Positions 3,938-47,858 of a DNA stretch of 48,301 nucleotides are shown here, piece after piece. This stretch comes from Escherichia phage vB_ EcoD_Phleasolo. The stretch lies in the sequence record OL539447.1, one strand, 5' to 3'. Position numbers and translations under genes: made by a program. The stretch's first letter is position 1; every line of letters begins with the position of its first letter. A model generated the notes under the pieces. That model saw only the letters and a list, made by a program, of their open reading frames with translations. It was not told the origin of the DNA and ran no database searches.

Positions 3938-5036
3938 AATGCGTTATGACAGCGCTAAAGTAAAAGCCCGTTTCGATGAGAACGGGTTTCTAGTGGACAC
4001 TCCAGTGGTTGCTCGTGTTGGTGTTCAAACATACTACATGCCAGATGGCTCAGAGCGCCGAGAGTTCCGACCAGCATCAGAGGTGTTTAAATCCGATTCC
4101 CTGCAAAGCTATCAGGGCAAGCCGCTTACGCTTGGTCATGTAGTTGTTAATTCAGATAACGCCAAGGATGTTGTAGTTGGAGCAGTATCTGGTGCAGCTA
4201 TGCGTCAGGATTCTACAGTTGTCGTTCCTCTAACAGTTTACGATAAGCAGGCAATAGAAAAGGCTAAGTCTGGCGTTGCTGGTGAGCTATCGGTTGGCTA
4301 TAACACTGTTGATATTGAGTCTCCTGGCTGGGGTAGTAACGAAACGGGTGAGTATAAGCTTGATGGAGAGTACGCAAGCCAGGATGATATCCCTGCTGAT
4401 TGGGTACGCTTTGATGCCCTGCAAACAAACATCGTTGTGAACCACATTGCTCTGGTATATAAAGGCCGCGCGCAAGTAGCTAAACTGAATCTGGACGCGG
4501 AACAGGAAAACCCGTATACTGATACCGTTCAATCAAATAAAGAGGATAAATTGATGATTAAGATTAAACTGGATGGCGAGCAGGAGTTCGAAATCGCCCC
4601 GGAAGTTGCTAAGCACATCGAAGCTGTTAAAGCTGATGCAGAACAGGCAAAAGCAAAAGCTGACACCCTTGAAGCTGAGCGTGACGCACTGAAAGCTAAA
4701 GTTGATGGCATTCCTGCTGAAATTGAATCTGCCGTAGCGAAAGCTAAAGCTGATGCTGACGAACTGGCCGCTCTGGTTGCTACCGCTGCAGAAGCTGGCG
4801 TTAAAGCTGATGGTATGGATGCTAAAGCAATCAAAGTTGCTTACGTTAAAGAAGTATCCGGCCTTGACGTTGCAGAGAAATCTGACGCATACATCGATGC
4901 GGCCTTTGATATCGCTAAAGATAGTGATAAAATGGCTGAAGTCCGCAAAGCAGTTGTTGCTGCGGATAAATCTGACGCTGCCGACGCGCCTAAGAAATTA
5001 GACCCGCGCGCTCGCCTCGCTAAATTGAAAAAATAA
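3927..5036 (+). CDS. head scaffolding / prohead maturation-like protein
   Basis: 369 aa; C-terminal half is an Ala/Lys/Glu-rich predicted coiled coil typical of scaffolding proteins; sits between portal and capsid genes. Confidence 0.4.
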   Translation: MKSKMRYDSAKVKARFDENGFLVDTPVVARVGVQTYYMPDGSERREFRPASEVFKSDSLQSYQGKPLTLGHVVVNSDNAKDVVVGAVSGAAMRQDSTVVVPLTVYDKQAIEKAKSGVAGELSVGYNTVDIESPGWGSNETGEYKLDGEYASQDDIPADWVRFDALQTNIVVNHIALVYKGRAQVAKLNLDAEQENPYTDTVQSNKEDKLMIKIKLDGEQEFEIAPEVAKHIEAVKADAEQAKAKADTLEAERDALKAKVDGIPAEIESAVAKAKADADELAALVATAAEAGVKADGMDAKAIKVAYVKEVSGLDVAEKSDAYIDAAFDIAKDSDKMAEVRKAVVAADKSDAADAPKKLDPRARLAKLKK

Positions 5037-5047
5037 GGAGTCTTAAT

Positions 5048-5518
5048 ATGGCAATTCGTCGTCAAGCTACTGCTGGTATGGTTGCAGATACCTCTCTGTA
5101 CAATATCGATGGTGCCTGTGTAATGTCTACCGGCGTAGTCCAGGGTGTCGGTTATGCTGTTGGTGTCGGTTCTGTTGATGCTGATGGTCACAAAGTTCTG
5201 ATTTCCGCTGTTGCTGATAACGTATACGGCGTCCTGGTGAAGTCACACTACGAAAGCCCGCGTGGTTCTTACGGTGGTGTTGTTGGTAACATTGATAACT
5301 TCCAGGTCGCAAACGTAATGACTCACGGTCGCATCTGGATGGTTACCGGCCTTCCTTCTGCTCCTGCATTTGGTAGTGCTGTTACCATTGATACTAATGG
5401 TTCCGCAACAAGCGGCGGCGCAGTCACTACCAACTGGACCTTCGCCGGTGGTTTCCAGGCAGCTGACACTGTGTCTGGCGAACCAGCACTGGTTGAAGTT
5501 CAGGTTATTCAGAAATAA
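5048..5518 (+). CDS. Gly/Val-rich capsid-associated protein (decoration-like)
   Basis: 156-aa ORF with AGGAG RBS in the head module; function inferred from position only. Confidence 0.3.
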   Translation: MAIRRQATAGMVADTSLYNIDGACVMSTGVVQGVGYAVGVGSVDADGHKVLISAVADNVYGVLVKSHYESPRGSYGGVVGNIDNFQVANVMTHGRIWMVTGLPSAPAFGSAVTIDTNGSATSGGAVTTNWTFAGGFQAADTVSGEPALVEVQVIQK

Positions 5519-5602: not shown

Positions 5603-6895
5603 ATGAAAATGGCTAGCTTCTTGGAATTGGTAAGAGATAACATTGATAAGGGTTTAGCGACAATGCAGCCCGTTCAGTTATCAACTGAGTTTACTGCAAT
5701 TAAAGAGATTAGGGTAGCAACATCAATCACCACGCCACAAACAATATCAAGGAGTGATGAAACAAAGCTAATGTATACAACTTACGGGCTTGCTAACGTA
5801 GCTGGTGGTTCATACACAGGACAATCGCCAAACGGAGTCCAGATGAAGGTTGAGTTTATGACTGACTCAACTTTGTTCGAAATCAAAACCATCGGCTCAA
5901 TCGGCACTTACTCAATTTTTATTGACGGCAAACTGGTAAATGCTGATGCATTCGCTACGCCAAATGGAGAGGCGGTGAGCTGGATGCAAGTTAAAGCTAA
6001 TGACGGAGTTATCAGCGGGAAACTTCGACACGTTGAAATCTACGGCATCAACTCAGCATTCGGAGCCTTCGTGTTTGGTGCTGGCGACACGGTTAGTCGT
6101 GAAATCTCAATCAAGCGCCCGCTTATTTATCAGATGGGTGATAGTTATACTTATGGAACTGGTGCTGGATTCAGGACTCAAGCTTACGGCTCATCTCCTG
6201 CCGTAAATGACTTCTATGCATTCACCAGGTCTCTTGGTTTTGATGGTATTGCTGAAGGAATTGGTGGATCAGGATGGAACTCAGCTGCCGGTCAGTATCC
6301 AATGTCTCGCGTGCAAACAAGGCTTGCAAAGCTAAATCGCAAGCCGTCAGTTATCTCCTGGGCGCTTGGATATAATGATGCCGCTGCCATCCTGACTGGA
6401 ACAAATAGCCAAAAGCTACTAGTTTCGATGGGTGAGTGTCTCGCTGAGACTAGGAAGGTTTATAGTGACGTTCCAATCATCCAGATTAGCAGCGCAACGC
6501 CGAAGGGAATTACCACTGGAATTCAGAAGGTAATTGATTTGGTTAATGGTTTTTGTTCTGATAACGACATTCCAGTAATTAACATAAGTAGCTATGTTAC
6601 TAATGCTAACTCGGCAATTTATACAGGAACAGACAACGTTCACCCGGGAACTCTTGGCCATGAGTTTAGGGGAATGGCAATGGCTCGCGAGGTTCTGCTT
6701 GCAGCCTCGGGTCAGAAATCACTAACAGTCCCAGTTACGCCGCGTGCATTTAACGTGGTAGCAAGGCTGACTAAAAGTTTTGGAGTTACAATCTTCTCTG
6801 GTGTAGTAAATGCTATTGATGAGAATGATGTTGCCGGACAGCTATACTTGCAGACTGGTGCTCGAGTGGAAATTCTCTCAGTATCTCGCGCCTAA
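5603..6895 (+). CDS. SGNH/GDSL hydrolase-domain protein (esterase/deacetylase-like)
   Basis: 430 aa; C-terminal domain carries a GDS block (YQMGDSYTYGTG) and a DxxH block (DNVHPGTLGH); own TGGTACAAT extended -10 and flanking terminators. Confidence 0.55.
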   Translation: MKMASFLELVRDNIDKGLATMQPVQLSTEFTAIKEIRVATSITTPQTISRSDETKLMYTTYGLANVAGGSYTGQSPNGVQMKVEFMTDSTLFEIKTIGSIGTYSIFIDGKLVNADAFATPNGEAVSWMQVKANDGVISGKLRHVEIYGINSAFGAFVFGAGDTVSREISIKRPLIYQMGDSYTYGTGAGFRTQAYGSSPAVNDFYAFTRSLGFDGIAEGIGGSGWNSAAGQYPMSRVQTRLAKLNRKPSVISWALGYNDAAAILTGTNSQKLLVSMGECLAETRKVYSDVPIIQISSATPKGITTGIQKVIDLVNGFCSDNDIPVINISSYVTNANSAIYTGTDNVHPGTLGHEFRGMAMAREVLLAASGQKSLTVPVTPRAFNVVARLTKSFGVTIFSGVVNAIDENDVAGQLYLQTGARVEILSVSRA

Positions 6896-6899
6896 TATC

Positions 6900-6923
6900 A
6901 AACCTCCTTCGGGAGGTTTTTTA
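6900..6923 (+). terminator. rho-independent terminator
   Basis: ACCTCC-TTCG-GGAGGT hairpin plus T run. Confidence 0.7.
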
Positions 6924-6976
6924 TTGCTCTTTTTCTGTTAGACTGTCAATGATTATTAACCAATCAGGAGATAAAG

Positions 6977-8488
6977 ATGGCTTACACAGAAATTGCTATG
7001 GCGGTAGGGAATTCACCTGAAATCTTAGCCAGGAACGTAAAAATGATGATGTCATCTGGATTTCAGCCATATGGTGACGTCCAGATGCTAAGCGGCACTC
7101 TCTTTGGCATGAAAATGGCCAAGGGAACAGCAAACAACGTTGAAGACTTTATGGTGACATCCGACACCACAGTTCAGGGATTGATTAACAGGGTTAACCG
7201 ATATCTTTTGCAGGGCTGGAAAAGGTTTGGCAATGCTCACTTTGAGGATGGAGCATATCTTTCAGCACTTGCGAAAGGTGATTTTGTAAGTGATGAAGAC
7301 GGAGGCTCAGGTGAAGCAGGCCCACAAGGTCCGATTGGTCCACAGGGTCCAGCAGGTCCCGCAGGCGCAGCTGGTCCGCAAGGTCCTCAAGGTCCAACTG
7401 GTGCAACTGGCCCAGCGGGTGCGGCAGGTGCTAAAGGTGACACTGGCCCACAAGGTCCGGCAGGTCCGCAAGGTCCTCAAGGTGAAACTGGCGAGGCTGG
7501 TCCATAGGGTCCTATCGGCCCAACGGGCGCCACAGGTCCGGCTGGCCCAAAAGGTGATAAAGGTGATGCAGGCCCAGTTGGCCCGGCAGGATTAACTTTC
7601 CGCGGGATGTACGACGCAGCTACTGCTTACGTTAAAGATGATGTGGTTACATTCAATAACTCTAGCTGGTTTGCTACCGCCGCTGTGACCGGAGAGAATC
7701 CAGATGTTAGCGATTCCTGGGAGTTGCTGGCCGCGCAGGGCGCTCCAGGTCCGCAAGGCGCAACTGGTCCAGCAGGCCCAACTGGCCCGGCAGGCCCTGC
7801 AGGTATTCAGGGACCTCAGGGAGAGAGAGGGCTTCATGGTGAGCAAGGTCCGTCAGGCCCGCAAGGCTTGCAAGGTGCAGCTGGTCCAGTTGGACCTCAA
7901 GGCCCAGCAGGTCCTCAGGGTGAGCGAGGAATACAGGGTCCGGTTGGCCCTCAAGGATTGCAGGGTGTAAAAGGTGATCCAGGCGTTAATTCTACATATA
8001 CACTACCTTTAAAAAACTACCTTGTAATAGCCCTTAATGAAGAGGAGGGGGCGAGGCAGACATTCAGGGTGCCAGAAGACAGTTCGGGAGCTGAAATAGC
8101 TTTTGTGGTCAGAAATAAAGATTCTTCAAACACTTCACCATCTGGAGTTTATGAGCTGGGATGTGGAGTGACTGGTACGGCTTCAATGCACTTTTCAGGT
8201 TGGATTATTAGTAACCTTAACCAACCAGATAAAATAAGATCAGCCTCTATGCTAATTGCTTCCATGACTAATAGTCAGCGATACTTTACGCAGTTAGCAA
8301 TAGGAACAAGGGGTGATCTTTTTAAAGGTTGCTTAACCAATCAGGAAACTGGTGAGCTATGGTACATTGAGGCTTTTGGTACCAAGCCAAGAGGGGCAGG
8401 GCAAACCGACTTAGGTAGACTCTCAGTTAAGATTGAGAAAAGAGTTGATACAGTAGTTGGAAGCTTAACAAAATTCCCAAGAGTTTAA
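6977..8488 (+). CDS. collagen-like (Gly-X-Y repeat) protein with a globular C-terminal domain, interrupted by an in-frame TAG at 7505-7507
   Basis: Two same-frame ORFs (6977-7507 and 7607-8488) separated only by one TAG; Gly-X-Y repeats (GPQGPAGP...) run through the stop in perfect register. Confidence 0.6.
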
Positions 8489-8528: not shown

Positions 8529-8556
8529 TTGTCCCAATCGAAATCTCGTGTATAAT
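8529..8556 (+). promoter_or_regulatory. sigma70-like promoter with extended -10 (TTGTCC-N16-TG-TATAAT)
   Basis: Hexamers read directly from sequence upstream of the capsid gene. Confidence 0.45.
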
Positions 8557-43257: not shown

Positions 43258-43928
43258 TGTTTGATTTCAAAGAGGATAAACTTACTTATGAGCAGGTGTT
43301 AGCAGCAGCAGCGGCAGACAATCTGCCTCCCTTGCGAGTATCAATAATTGCAAATGGTTACCGACAATCTGCAAATCTATGGCCTGAACTGGATAAGGTA
43401 TGGCGAATACAGTAATTTTTACATTGATGAGTGCGTTGAACTATATGAAGGATATGGCGAGCCAACTGCGTGCCATGGAGATGAGCTTGGTATCAGCTTT
43501 CCCGAAGAGCGTGAGGATTGATATATGACAAAGATTTCGAACTAGACACTGGAGCTTTAAAGATTATAGAAATCCTCATTAATCAAGGAATGAGCAGTAA
43601 AGGTGTCGTTGGTCTCGGGTCACTATATAATACAGTAAGGAAAGTTAAACCATTCGAAGGTAAAAGTGAAGTAATTATGGATATCAGAGATGTCATCATC
43701 CCAAACCTTGATAAGCTTGGCTATGCATGCCTAATCGGAGATAAGATTTACATCAACCCTAAACTGCTTGATGGCAACCAGGACTGGACTTACAAGGTTA
43801 AGCTGCTGGAAGATGATTTCAACATCGACGATTGCGAGAAGATTGTTGACGAGATTACTATCAAGGCAATTGATGAGCAAATCGAGAGGCTCAAGCGGAA
43901 GAAGAAGTACCTCCTGACCGGTAAATAG
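43257..43928 (+). pseudogene. internally deleted paralog of the 527-aa P-loop gene (N-terminal 52-aa ORF 43257-43415 plus C-terminal ORF 43518-43928)
   Basis: MFDFKEDKLTYEQVLAAAAADNLPPLRVSIIANGYRQSA matches the N-terminus of the 39368-40951 protein; ...KGVVGLGSLYNTVRKVKPFEG...YACLIGDKIYINPKLL matches its C-terminus; ATPase core absent. Confidence 0.45.
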
Positions 43929-43968
43929 CACGAATTGCTAAACCAGTTCCGCAGGGATGCGTTATAGT
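43926..43968 (+). promoter_or_regulatory. representative phage promoter unit: TAGCA-N5-TGCTA palindrome, 22-nt spacer with CGCA-GGGA-TGCG mini-palindrome, TATAGT -10
   Basis: Same architecture recurs about 16 times across the genome, followed by a conserved CATCGAAACGA leader. Confidence 0.5.
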
Positions 43969-44766: not shown

Positions 44767-45593
44767 CAATTCACTTCCATGGCTCCCCTATAACGGGGGG
44801 CAAGGGCGATGCACTTGCTCGGACCGCGTATACAAATGGCGGTGCTTTCGTGTCATTCGCCCACCCGCAGCAGATAGAATTGGCGTTTAAGGTAGCGAAT
44901 GCAGTATGCATAGATAATGGTGCGTTCTCTAAGAAGAATAGCGGCAAAGCTACTGACTGGCATAAATTCTATAATGACTTTTTACCCAGATTTATCGACA
45001 GAGAAAAGTTACGATTCTTTGTTATACCTGATGATATCAGCGGGTGCGACAAAGAGAACGACAGATTAATAAGCGAACTTCCATTACACCTAAAGCACAA
45101 AGGAGCTCCAGTCTGGCATATGCATGAGAGCTTAGACAGGCTAGTCCACCTTGCCAACGAGTGGGAATACATGTGTATAGGCTCGTCAGGCGAGTACTAC
45201 TCTATCCGTTCAGAGAAATGGAAGCGGCGCATGAATGATGCCTTTAACGCTCTAATTCAGAGGGGCTACTCAGCAAAAATTCACGGCCTCAGAATGCTGG
45301 ATGGTCGAGTTCTTGGCAACTACCCACTGGATCAGGCTGACTCAACAAACCTGGCTATTAATGCGCCTAAGTGGATATGCAAATATATAGATATGACCAT
45401 TGAGGCGTGCCGAGCTCAGACTCACAGAGACGCATGGATTTCAACCTCAGATCCGAAGTTTGCACTTGAGCAATTAATCGCAGACGGCGGCACAAGGGAG
45501 CAGATGCTGGCACAGAGATGCGCGATACTCAGGAATTGCATAGAAGCAGTAAGGCCACCATCAAGGGATTCATGGAATAGCACGAATTGCTAA
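44763..45593 (+). CDS. hypothetical enzyme (possible TGT/DpdA-like base-exchange enzyme)
   Basis: 276 aa; VCIDNGAFS resembles the TGT substrate-pocket motif (TDSGGFQ); no CxCxxC zinc site seen; coupled to the upstream membrane protein. Confidence 0.3.
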   Translation: MTIHFHGSPITGGKGDALARTAYTNGGAFVSFAHPQQIELAFKVANAVCIDNGAFSKKNSGKATDWHKFYNDFLPRFIDREKLRFFVIPDDISGCDKENDRLISELPLHLKHKGAPVWHMHESLDRLVHLANEWEYMCIGSSGEYYSIRSEKWKRRMNDAFNALIQRGYSAKIHGLRMLDGRVLGNYPLDQADSTNLAINAPKWICKYIDMTIEACRAQTHRDAWISTSDPKFALEQLIADGGTREQMLAQRCAILRNCIEAVRPPSRDSWNSTNC

Positions 45594-45644
45594 ACAATAA
45601 ATCGGGTAGTCAGCTATGATTACCCTATCAACAACGAAGAGGAA

Positions 45645-46217: not shown

Positions 46218-46469
46218 ATGAAGATTCATAGCAAGTACAACCGAGAGATTATCGGCCTGGATGGAACGTTAACGACAGTCGATGTATATCGTGTTCTGGA
46301 TGCATTCCAGGTAACAGACCCAGCAATTCAGCACGCAATCAAGAAAATGCTCTGTACTGGGTTGCGAGGCCACAAGGATTACCTCACCGACATTGATGAC
46401 TCAATAGAATCACTTAGGAAAGCAAAGGAGCTTTACGGTCAGAAGAAGATAAATAGCACGAATTGCTAA
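46218..46469 (+). CDS. hypothetical protein
   Basis: 83-aa ORF; ends ...NSTNC via the palindromic motif. Confidence 0.4.
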   Translation: MKIHSKYNREIIGLDGTLTTVDVYRVLDAFQVTDPAIQHAIKKMLCTGLRGHKDYLTDIDDSIESLRKAKELYGQKKINSTNC

Positions 46470-46526
46470 ACATCAATCGCAGGGATGCGTTACTATTACT
46501 AAATCGAAACGAACTAGGAAGAAGAA

Positions 46527-47756: not shown

Positions 47757-47858
47757 GCTCACGTTGCTAATGTTGGCCTAAGGGTGGAGCTTATACCTCC
47801 ATAAAGCAATCACCAGATAAGTGATGTAACGCAGGTTCGATTCCTGCCGTGAGCACCA
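47757..47858 (+). tRNA. tRNA-like element, non-canonical length (identity unresolved)
   Basis: Canonical T arm GCAGG-TTCGATT-CCTGC, 3' CGTGAGC-A-CCA and a perfect complementary GCTCACG 102 nt upstream; two internal 5-bp hairpins; no clean D arm. Confidence 0.3.

Follow-up and report, generated by a model that had tools for sequence, protein, structure and literature searches.

A clone-specific amber codon in a collagen-like, probable head-fiber gene of Escherichia phage vB_EcoD_Phleasolo

Introduction

Why would a collagen repeat in a phage gene be interrupted by a stop codon and then resume, in register, on the other side? The question is raised by positions 6977 to 8488 of the genome of Escherichia phage vB_EcoD_Phleasolo (OL539447.1), a T1-like siphophage of the genus Rogunavirus (Rogunavirinae, Drexlerviridae). 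Throughout, "the window" refers to the whole 48.3-kb stretch of DNA analyzed (48,301 nucleotides, nt). A first-pass annotation, made from the letters of the window, had described two open reading frames (ORFs) separated by TAG at this locus and offered three explanations, namely a recent nonsense mutation, a sequencing error, or amber readthrough. Our analysis indicates that the locus very probably records a recent, clone-specific CAG-to-TAG knock-out of a non-essential, collagen-like structural gene, which probably encodes a capsid-anchored head fiber.

Results

The locus is one collagen-like frame on the plus strand, comprising 176 codons, TAG at 7505–7507, 326 sense codons, and TAA at 8486–8488. 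As first described, the two ORFs share a frame and are split by the TAG only. With codon 177 read as Gln, the ancestral gene (6977–8488, +), now split, spans 503 codons. Its true start, ATG at 6977, lies 6 nt downstream of the Shine-Dalgarno motif AGGAG (6966–6970, +), a strong ribosome-binding site (RBS). The first in-frame ATG past the amber (7607–7609, +) opens a 293-amino acid (aa) ORF that appears as a separate coding sequence (CDS) in GenBank. This restart candidate sits 100 nt 3′ of the amber, and a Shine-Dalgarno motif at a usable distance was not found, in agreement with the first-pass annotation. The gene holds 29 Gln codons and, because a single C-to-T change turns each of them into a stop, presents a large target for nonsense lesions.

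The amber falls within the first of two collagen runs. Run 1 (7301–7597, +; aa 109–207) contains 33 Gly-X-Y triplets and run 2 (7739–7990, +; aa 255–338) contains 28, and the match to the Collagen family (PF01391) reaches 94.6 bits against a gathering threshold of 27.2. A scripted triplet count identifies residue 177 as the Y of triplet 23, the Gly-X-Y register is unbroken across the amber, and GPQ is the most frequent triplet (13 of 61); the initial claims of a stop at the Y of a Gly-Pro-Y triplet and of GPQ as the commonest triplet are thereby both upheld. Upstream of the repeats is an N-terminal anchor (6977–7282, +; aa 1–102), a tandem DUF1737-type β-α-β-β pair and putative capsid hexon-binding module. 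The runs are separated by a knot (7598–7738, +; aa 208–254) with a weak CBM_5_12-like match (16.9 bits versus a 26.2-bit cut-off), and the protein ends in a distal knob (7991–8485, +; aa 339–503) that is replaced by unrelated knobs in relatives, a module swap. A further CDS annotated in the Opt-79 record, OPT79_8 (7290–7595, +; 101 aa, GTG start, "hypothetical protein"), is an out-of-frame ORF within the collagen repeat and is almost certainly spurious.

Comparison with related phages gives the direction of the change. An intact single ORF of 481–491 aa occupies the same position in five of them (phiKP26, C119, Rogue1, Sf12, and Sd1), to which the gene is 86–90% identical in DNA over its first ~980 nt. 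Because its DNA shares 87–90% identity with these uninterrupted orthologous ORFs, the frame beyond the amber is coding sequence rather than a chance opening. The first-pass annotation had proposed looking for CAG at codon 177 of related phages; all five alignable relatives encode Gln there, as CAG in phiKP26, Rogue1, and C119 and as CAA in Sf12 and Sd1, from which it follows that the TAG arose as a C-to-T nonsense mutation at 7505 (Gln177 to amber). Other homologs are likewise uninterrupted, and no relative shows the amber or the two-ORF arrangement.

The lesion also appears young. By the Nei-Gojobori method, the ratio of nonsynonymous to synonymous substitution rates (dN/dS) against the five relatives is 0.08–0.10 for codons 1–176 and 0.08–0.18 for codons 178–335, and no second stop or frameshift was found in the 326 post-amber codons. 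Since the codons beyond the amber show no relaxed constraint, we regard the lesion as recent; strong purifying selection appears to have acted on the distal part of the gene up to a very recent time. A recent nonsense pseudogene is marked by a single disabling lesion where close relatives keep intact orthologs, as is the case here. The earlier reading of a recent nonsense mutation one transition away from CAG is thus sustained by the CAG and CAA codons of relatives and by the lack of downstream relaxation. Scans of IMG/VR, for which knob peptides and a DNA pattern across codon 177 served as queries, did not reveal a wild near-ancestor.

Two further phages have short versions of the gene on record. 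JK06 carries a naturally shortened yet intact fiber, consisting of the anchor, ~8 triplets, and a Rogue1-type knob; a deletion between collagen repeats that kept the frame is its probable origin. Ambiguous bases (Ns) pervade the phiJLA23 copy, and the short "DNA polymerase" ORF annotated there is an artefact of sequence quality. We considered and rejected these truncations as instances of recurrent decay, one being an intact in-frame short form and the other a low-quality sequence with Ns.

Is the T itself real? The gene is 100% identical to those in the GenBank records Opt-79, Opt-719, and Sadiya, and a whole-genome comparison among these three records found 0 real substitutions in 48.3 kb; they differ in N characters, in a rotation of the start point, and in the placement of one 132-bp block. 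With 0 substitutions over 48.3 kb, the records represent a single clone to which the amber allele is private. The three GenBank entries for that clone differ in name, in host label (Klebsiella, E. coli, and Serratia), and in sewage site. According to the genome announcement, the Rogunavirus isolates Opt-719, PhleaSolo, and Sadiya came from an undergraduate Phage Hunters course using E. coli BW25113 as host; they were plaque-purified at least 3 times, grown to >1e8 plaque-forming units (PFU)/mL on BW25113, and sequenced on the Illumina platform to mean coverages of 172x, 2162x, and 17x, respectively (PMC9119101).

Independent assemblies agree with the records. Logan re-assemblies of four SRA runs encode the exact 176-aa and 293-aa products (SRR17231351, SRR17231353, SRR10580544, and SRR25698405, with contigs shared by 2, 3, 4, and 1 samples, respectively). 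Each of the four contigs matches the window at 100% identity and includes GGTCCATAGGGTCC. A Gln177-restored protein is on record nowhere in the protein collection searched, which included the Logan re-assemblies. The T allele is real and fixed in the stock. The same contigs occur in at least 9 Logan SRA runs, some of them from an earlier batch of that laboratory, which suggests a laboratory-resident phage that has been repeatedly "re-isolated." T1 is stable on drying (PMC9119101), and the presence of the allele in several batches of sequencing runs of one laboratory fits the name of T1-like phages as persistent laboratory residents.

We next consider decoding of the stop. The phage tRNA content is limited to tRNA-Arg(CCU) and a tRNA-like element with anticodon GAU, and no tRNA with a CUA anticodon was found in the phage genome. 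The first-pass annotation had said that neither tRNA-like element nearby has a CUA anticodon; the anticodons bear this out, whereas the word "nearby" does not hold, as both elements are ~40 kb from the gene. The second tRNA-like gene (47757–47855, +), which adjoins tRNA-Arg(CCU) and is unannotated in the GenBank records, scores 42.7 bits against the Rfam tRNA model and has a 33-nt D-loop insertion and the anticodon loop CAGAUAA (GAU, Ile-like). On the host side, BW25113 is used as a sup0 strain. The one locus inspected there, glnX-glnV-glnW-glnU, encodes four tRNA-Gln genes with wild-type anticodons (two CUG and two UUG); because glnV and glnX carry wild-type CUG, the host is not supE.

Nor does the genome treat TAG unusually. 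Under reassignment, TAG would be avoided as a terminator, and here it ends six other annotated genes. TAG-to-Gln reassignment would also entail many in-frame TAGs across genes, essential ones among them, and a CUA tRNA; no other gene of the genome has a TAG with a long homologous open extension, all of them being intact, and no CUA tRNA is encoded by the phage or at the host gln locus. Programmed readthrough would entail a stop conserved among homologs, and the five alignable relatives have Gln instead. The six genuine TAG stops are all TAG-C, the commonest TAGN genome-wide (~38%; probability of six of six by chance, roughly 0.003), and the intragenic amber is TAG-G, the rarest. Despite the lesion, the phage grows on BW25113. 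We find no support for recoding or for readthrough of a programmed or suppressor-dependent kind: the stop is unconserved, the phage has no suppressor tRNA, the host is not supE, and TAG is a normal terminator. The readthrough option in the first-pass annotation would come down to an unavoidable basal leak.

What, then, was knocked out? In GenBank and RefSeq, the gene and its orthologs are labeled "DNA polymerase," "putative DNA polymerase I," or "tail fiber protein." The first label is also that of PHROG 22681 ("DNA polymerase," 157 positions), a profile of the N-terminal anchor and nothing else, and the tail fiber label belongs to PHROG 5073. We rejected the polymerase label because Pfam gives only Collagen and weak DUF1737 and CBM_5_12 matches and no polymerase match exists in the PDB. 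The tail fiber label was also set aside: the gene stands between the cement protein and SGNH hydrolase genes and that of the major capsid protein (MCP), the tail genes start ~3 kb further on, a tail fiber and a tailspike are annotated elsewhere, and the N-terminus is DUF1737-like.

The anchor is the most informative part of the protein. On its own, the N-terminal 111 aa of the window protein score 23.5 bits (E 5e-5) against DUF1737 (PF08410), whose cut-off is 24 bits, and the e4/1c ortholog reaches 37.6 bits in two stretches. An exhaustive profile search returned only 30 related clusters among 1.84 billion representatives. DUF1737 was detected at E ≤ 0.001 in 11 of the 29 relatives scanned (best, 43.6 bits); collagen was present in 13 of the 29, and CBM6, tachylectin, or the phi29 gp8.5 head-fiber domain PF11133 in others. 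A tandem repeat of a GWQP[FY] unit is obvious in several relatives. The two anchor halves of the window protein gave no match to each other by BLASTP, the repeat being visible only in e4/1c and more distant relatives.

AlphaFold2, run on a 21-sequence alignment after a shallow one had given a mean predicted local distance difference test (pLDDT) score of 54, predicted two consecutive β-α-β-β units with a pLDDT of 89 and a predicted template modeling (pTM) score of 0.80. In this model, the first unit comprises strand 5–11, helix 14–26, and strands 30–39 and 42–49, and the second comprises strand 54–63, helix 66–78, and strands 82–90 and 93–102. Each modeled half superimposes on ~55-aa phage proteins, several of them labeled DUF1737, and appears to have the fold of one helix on three antiparallel strands. 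Foldseek found no significant match of the anchor to the PDB; apparently, the PDB copy searched lacks the phi24B capsid model, or else a tandem query fails to match a single domain. Sequence searches of the PDB with the anchor and the knob returned only spurious tetratricopeptide repeat (TPR) and isochorismatase matches, and a word-indexed protein search with the N-terminal domain retrieved one fragment only. Searches of 50,000 phage genomes, IMG/VR, 5.8 billion proteins, and the PDB turned up no homolog of the knob (aa 339–503). It shows no similarity to the knobs of Rogue1 and Sf12, a faint resemblance in MAFFT not being real. Unrelated knobs among relatives are the pattern expected of an exchangeable tip, which would bind a ligand.

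Gene order points to the head as well. The prohead protease gene is followed by those for a capsid cement protein (PF22758; 5048–5518, +) and an SGNH/GDSL hydrolase (5603–6895, +; "head decoration" in RefSeq relatives), by the fiber gene, and immediately thereafter by the MCP gene (PF09950; 8583–9542, +). A relative bearing PF11133 fills the same slot in a syntenic T1-like contig, where the order is portal, protease, cement, SGNH hydrolase, anchor plus PF11133 gene, and MCP. From the anchor, the repeats, and this setting we infer that the gene product is a capsid-anchored collagen head fiber. A terminator-like hairpin with a T-run (6900–6927, +) lies 3′ of the hydrolase gene, and a promoter-like element, TTGTCC-N16-TATAAT (8529–8556, +), lies directly 5′ of the MCP gene, which it could shield from nonsense polarity.

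An SGNH/GDSL hydrolase inside a head module, in the same order in an unrelated syntenic contig, recalls the capsid-bound esterase of phi24B. A shared anchor for the hydrolase and the fiber was considered and dropped, since BLASTP of the hydrolase N-terminus against the fiber anchor gave no similarity; no DUF1737 or fiber-anchor similarity was detected in the first ~170 residues of the hydrolase.

Discussion

We propose that the gene encodes a trimeric collagen-like fiber in a Rogunavirus propagated in one teaching laboratory. By analogy with phi24B, the tandem DUF1737-type anchor most likely plugs into MCP hexons; the two DUF1737 units of each chain would add up to six in a trimer, matching one hexon, although this correspondence is speculative. 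The CBM5/12-like knot, collagen run 2, and the unique knob, all distal, most likely bind a surface or environmental ligand. On suppressor-free BW25113, ribosomes would terminate at the TAG and release a 176-aa product that keeps the anchor and 22 triplets and loses the 10 remaining triplets of run 1, the knot, collagen run 2, and the knob, that is, the distal adhesin. The 293-aa ORF would be essentially untranslated and is most likely not a functional protein, because it has no RBS, starts inside the conserved knot, and lacks the anchor. The phage is viable, presumably because the head fiber is dispensable in laboratory culture. The amber may have been neutral and drifted during plaque purification, or repeated plaque purification may have favored it; the sequence is compatible with either course. 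In this scheme, we infer the capsid attachment, the trimer-to-hexon stoichiometry, the adhesin role, and dispensability as the reason for tolerance.

Several points weigh against this explanation. Undamaged distal codons are equally expected if the distal part is still made and selected. The evidence on host suppressors is limited to the glnV/glnX locus of BW25113. The sequencing runs probably all stem from one laboratory, so that an artefact common to the DNA of one stock is formally possible; even then, that stock would carry a genuine mutation. As for the head-fiber identity, the DUF1737 score of the window protein is 0.5 bit under the Pfam cut-off, no solved structure matches the anchor, and capsid binding by DUF1737 is known only from a distant podovirus protein described in a preprint. 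Finally, the protein products of this clone are deduced from its sequence alone.

The explanations that would leave the gene working must be weighed against a knock-out. Leaky termination with a function, which we think unlikely, holds that near-cognate tRNA-Gln(CUG) sometimes reads UAG, so that many 176-aa stubs and few full-length fibers are made and are tolerated or selected, as with Qβ A1. A Pro preceding the stop impairs termination in E. coli, and the amber here follows a Pro, which we count in favor of a leak, as we do the undamaged state of all 326 post-amber codons and the atypical TAG-G context of this stop, set against six genuine stops that are all TAG-C. Suppressor-free E. coli, moreover, reportedly inserts Gln at UAG (Nilsson & Ryden-Aulin 2003, as cited in PMC5289835), the ancestral residue, and basal misreading of UAG as Gln may yield small amounts of the ancestral protein. 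Yet the stop is absent from every relative and from every record beyond this clone, and the sequence around it does not differ from that of relatives with CAG, no readthrough-promoting element having evolved; because the flanks match those relatives and the stop occurs nowhere else, we see no sign of selection for a leak. Basal misreading is low, and a trimer of three full-length chains would form at roughly the cube of its rate unless mixed trimers are allowed, while the lack of decay is explained equally well by recency. A more elaborate version, which we judge very improbable, makes the amber a stoichiometry switch: capsids would carry mostly short plugs, and rare Gln misreading at Pro-UAG-G would yield a few full-length head fibers per virion, a state kept as a balance between diffusion through the lawn and adhesion. 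Such a switch would be an accidental bacterial-virus analogue of Qβ A1 readthrough, operating on a capsid-displayed collagen adhesin.

The other alternatives fare worse than leakage. Dependence on a host suppressor, with the amber mutant kept on a supE-type strain that inserts Gln and restores the full-length fiber, has in its favor that supE (glnV44), which many laboratory derivatives of K-12 carry, would put back precisely the wild-type residue; BW25113 is nonetheless the strain named for isolation and propagation, the tRNA-Gln anticodons at its gln locus are wild type, and the phage brings no suppressor tRNA, and we consider this account exceedingly improbable. The chances are just as slim for a functional split gene in which the 176-aa anchor and the 293-aa distal protein are both made and act as two proteins. 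Gene finders do call both ORFs, which are annotated as CDSs, but ATG 7607 has no Shine-Dalgarno motif 100 nt past the stop and falls inside a domain conserved in intact orthologs, its product would lack part of the knot, all of collagen run 1, and the anchor and thus has no evident route into the virion, and the arrangement is found in no relative. Least credible, to the point of being nearly negligible, is a sequencing or assembly error concealing a C at 7505 and an intact gene. Collagen repeats are hard to assemble, as the Ns in the phiJLA23 copy illustrate, and the student-annotated assemblies have other flaws, including Ns that break the Sadiya protease gene and the displaced 132-bp block. 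Against this, the same T is present in three de novo GenBank assemblies and four separately built Logan contigs, some of them common to 2–4 samples, mean Illumina coverage within the course trio reached 2162x (PMC9119101), a substitution is not typical of repeat collapse, and the repaired protein is on no contig. The sequencing error that the first-pass annotation had entertained is accordingly close to refuted on the assemblies compared, and a recent nonsense mutation in a probable head-fiber gene stays the preferred account.

This knock-out has a close parallel in lambda. In lambda PaPa, one frameshift splits the long, non-essential stf fiber gene of Ur-lambda into two annotated ORFs (orf401/orf314) in a laboratory stock, and wild relatives are intact, as here. 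Plating readily selects for loss of that accessory fiber: of 21 large-plaque isolates, 19 had mutations in stf, among them 15 frameshifts (PMC2762979). In the present case, by contrast, a nonsense substitution takes the place of the frameshift, the fiber is seemingly head-anchored rather than a side tail fiber, and the event is known only from its DNA.

The proposed attachment is modeled on phi24B. A 2026 cryo-electron microscopy (cryo-EM) preprint on that phage describes DUF1737 (one helix and three antiparallel strands) as a capsid-binding domain that forms a hexamer at the center of the MCP hexon, the rest of the protein being cleaved away. Like phi24B gp84 (NanS-p esterase), the window protein has an N-terminal β-α-β-β fold with DUF1737 similarity ahead of an exchangeable module and is encoded in the head gene region; processing of the phi24B protein leaves only its anchor on the capsid, a state that the 176-aa stub would resemble. 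Unlike gp84, the window protein has two tandem domains followed by collagen rather than an esterase, belongs to a T1-like siphovirus rather than a T=9 podovirus, and falls just short of the family cut-off, and its binding is a prediction. Trimeric or elongated, capsid-displayed appendages that are dispensable in the laboratory also include the phi29 gp8.5 head fibers and T4 Hoc, and the syntenic relative carries PF11133 on the same anchor; the window protein itself lacks PF11133, which sets it apart from gp8.5, and has a collagen shaft and a knob without homologs. The prophage proteins EPclA-D of enterohemorrhagic E. coli (EHEC) similarly place a Gly-X-Y triple-helix shaft between globular termini, with a distal trimerization and binding module (Ghosh et al. 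2012, PMC3368898). Those proteins, in contrast, combine a PfN tail-fiber N-terminal domain with a coiled coil and are regarded as side tail fibers, whereas the window protein has two DUF1737 units and lies in the head module. With Qβ A1 readthrough and TAG-to-Gln recoded phages, the locus shares an in-frame stop before a long conserved extension and the expectation of Gln at UAG; it departs from them in having an unconserved stop, no suppressor tRNA, a single occurrence, and TAG as an ordinary terminator.

The stop codon itself is of minor significance, an ordinary gene knock-out in another laboratory phage stock losing an accessory fiber. It does call for caution, as three GenBank records with different host labels represent one clone bearing the knock-out, and the announcement lists a fourth name, PhleaSolo. 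The more useful outcome is the re-identification of a gene mislabeled across databases as that of a probable DUF1737-anchored head fiber, with distal modules (collagen and knob, the phi29 head-fiber domain, or a lectin or CBM) that appear freely exchangeable on the tandem anchor. If this assignment is true, annotations would be corrected across Rogunavirinae and the principle of DUF1737 capsid binding would extend from podoviruses to T1-like siphophages. The clone and its intact relatives would then form a natural knock-out/wild-type pair for studying head-fiber function.

Additional observations

Other irregularities were noted in the records of this clone. The prohead protease gene of Sadiya appears broken (window position ~4224; record 4006–5117, misc_feature) owing to two inserted Ns in the 17x assembly and not to a real frameshift. 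The 132-bp block that lies at 43400–43531 in the window is found ~2.7 kb further downstream in Opt-719 and Sadiya, and a 16-nt near-repeat, GAGGATTGA[T/G]ATATGA, occurs at 43513 and 46206, near both junctions of the block; the displacement reflects either an assembly ambiguity or a small real rearrangement. In the early-gene region, a repeated motif with the core AATAGCACGAATTGCTAAAC is present in three copies (43922–43964, 45574–45616, and 46450–46492) and may be a regulatory site.

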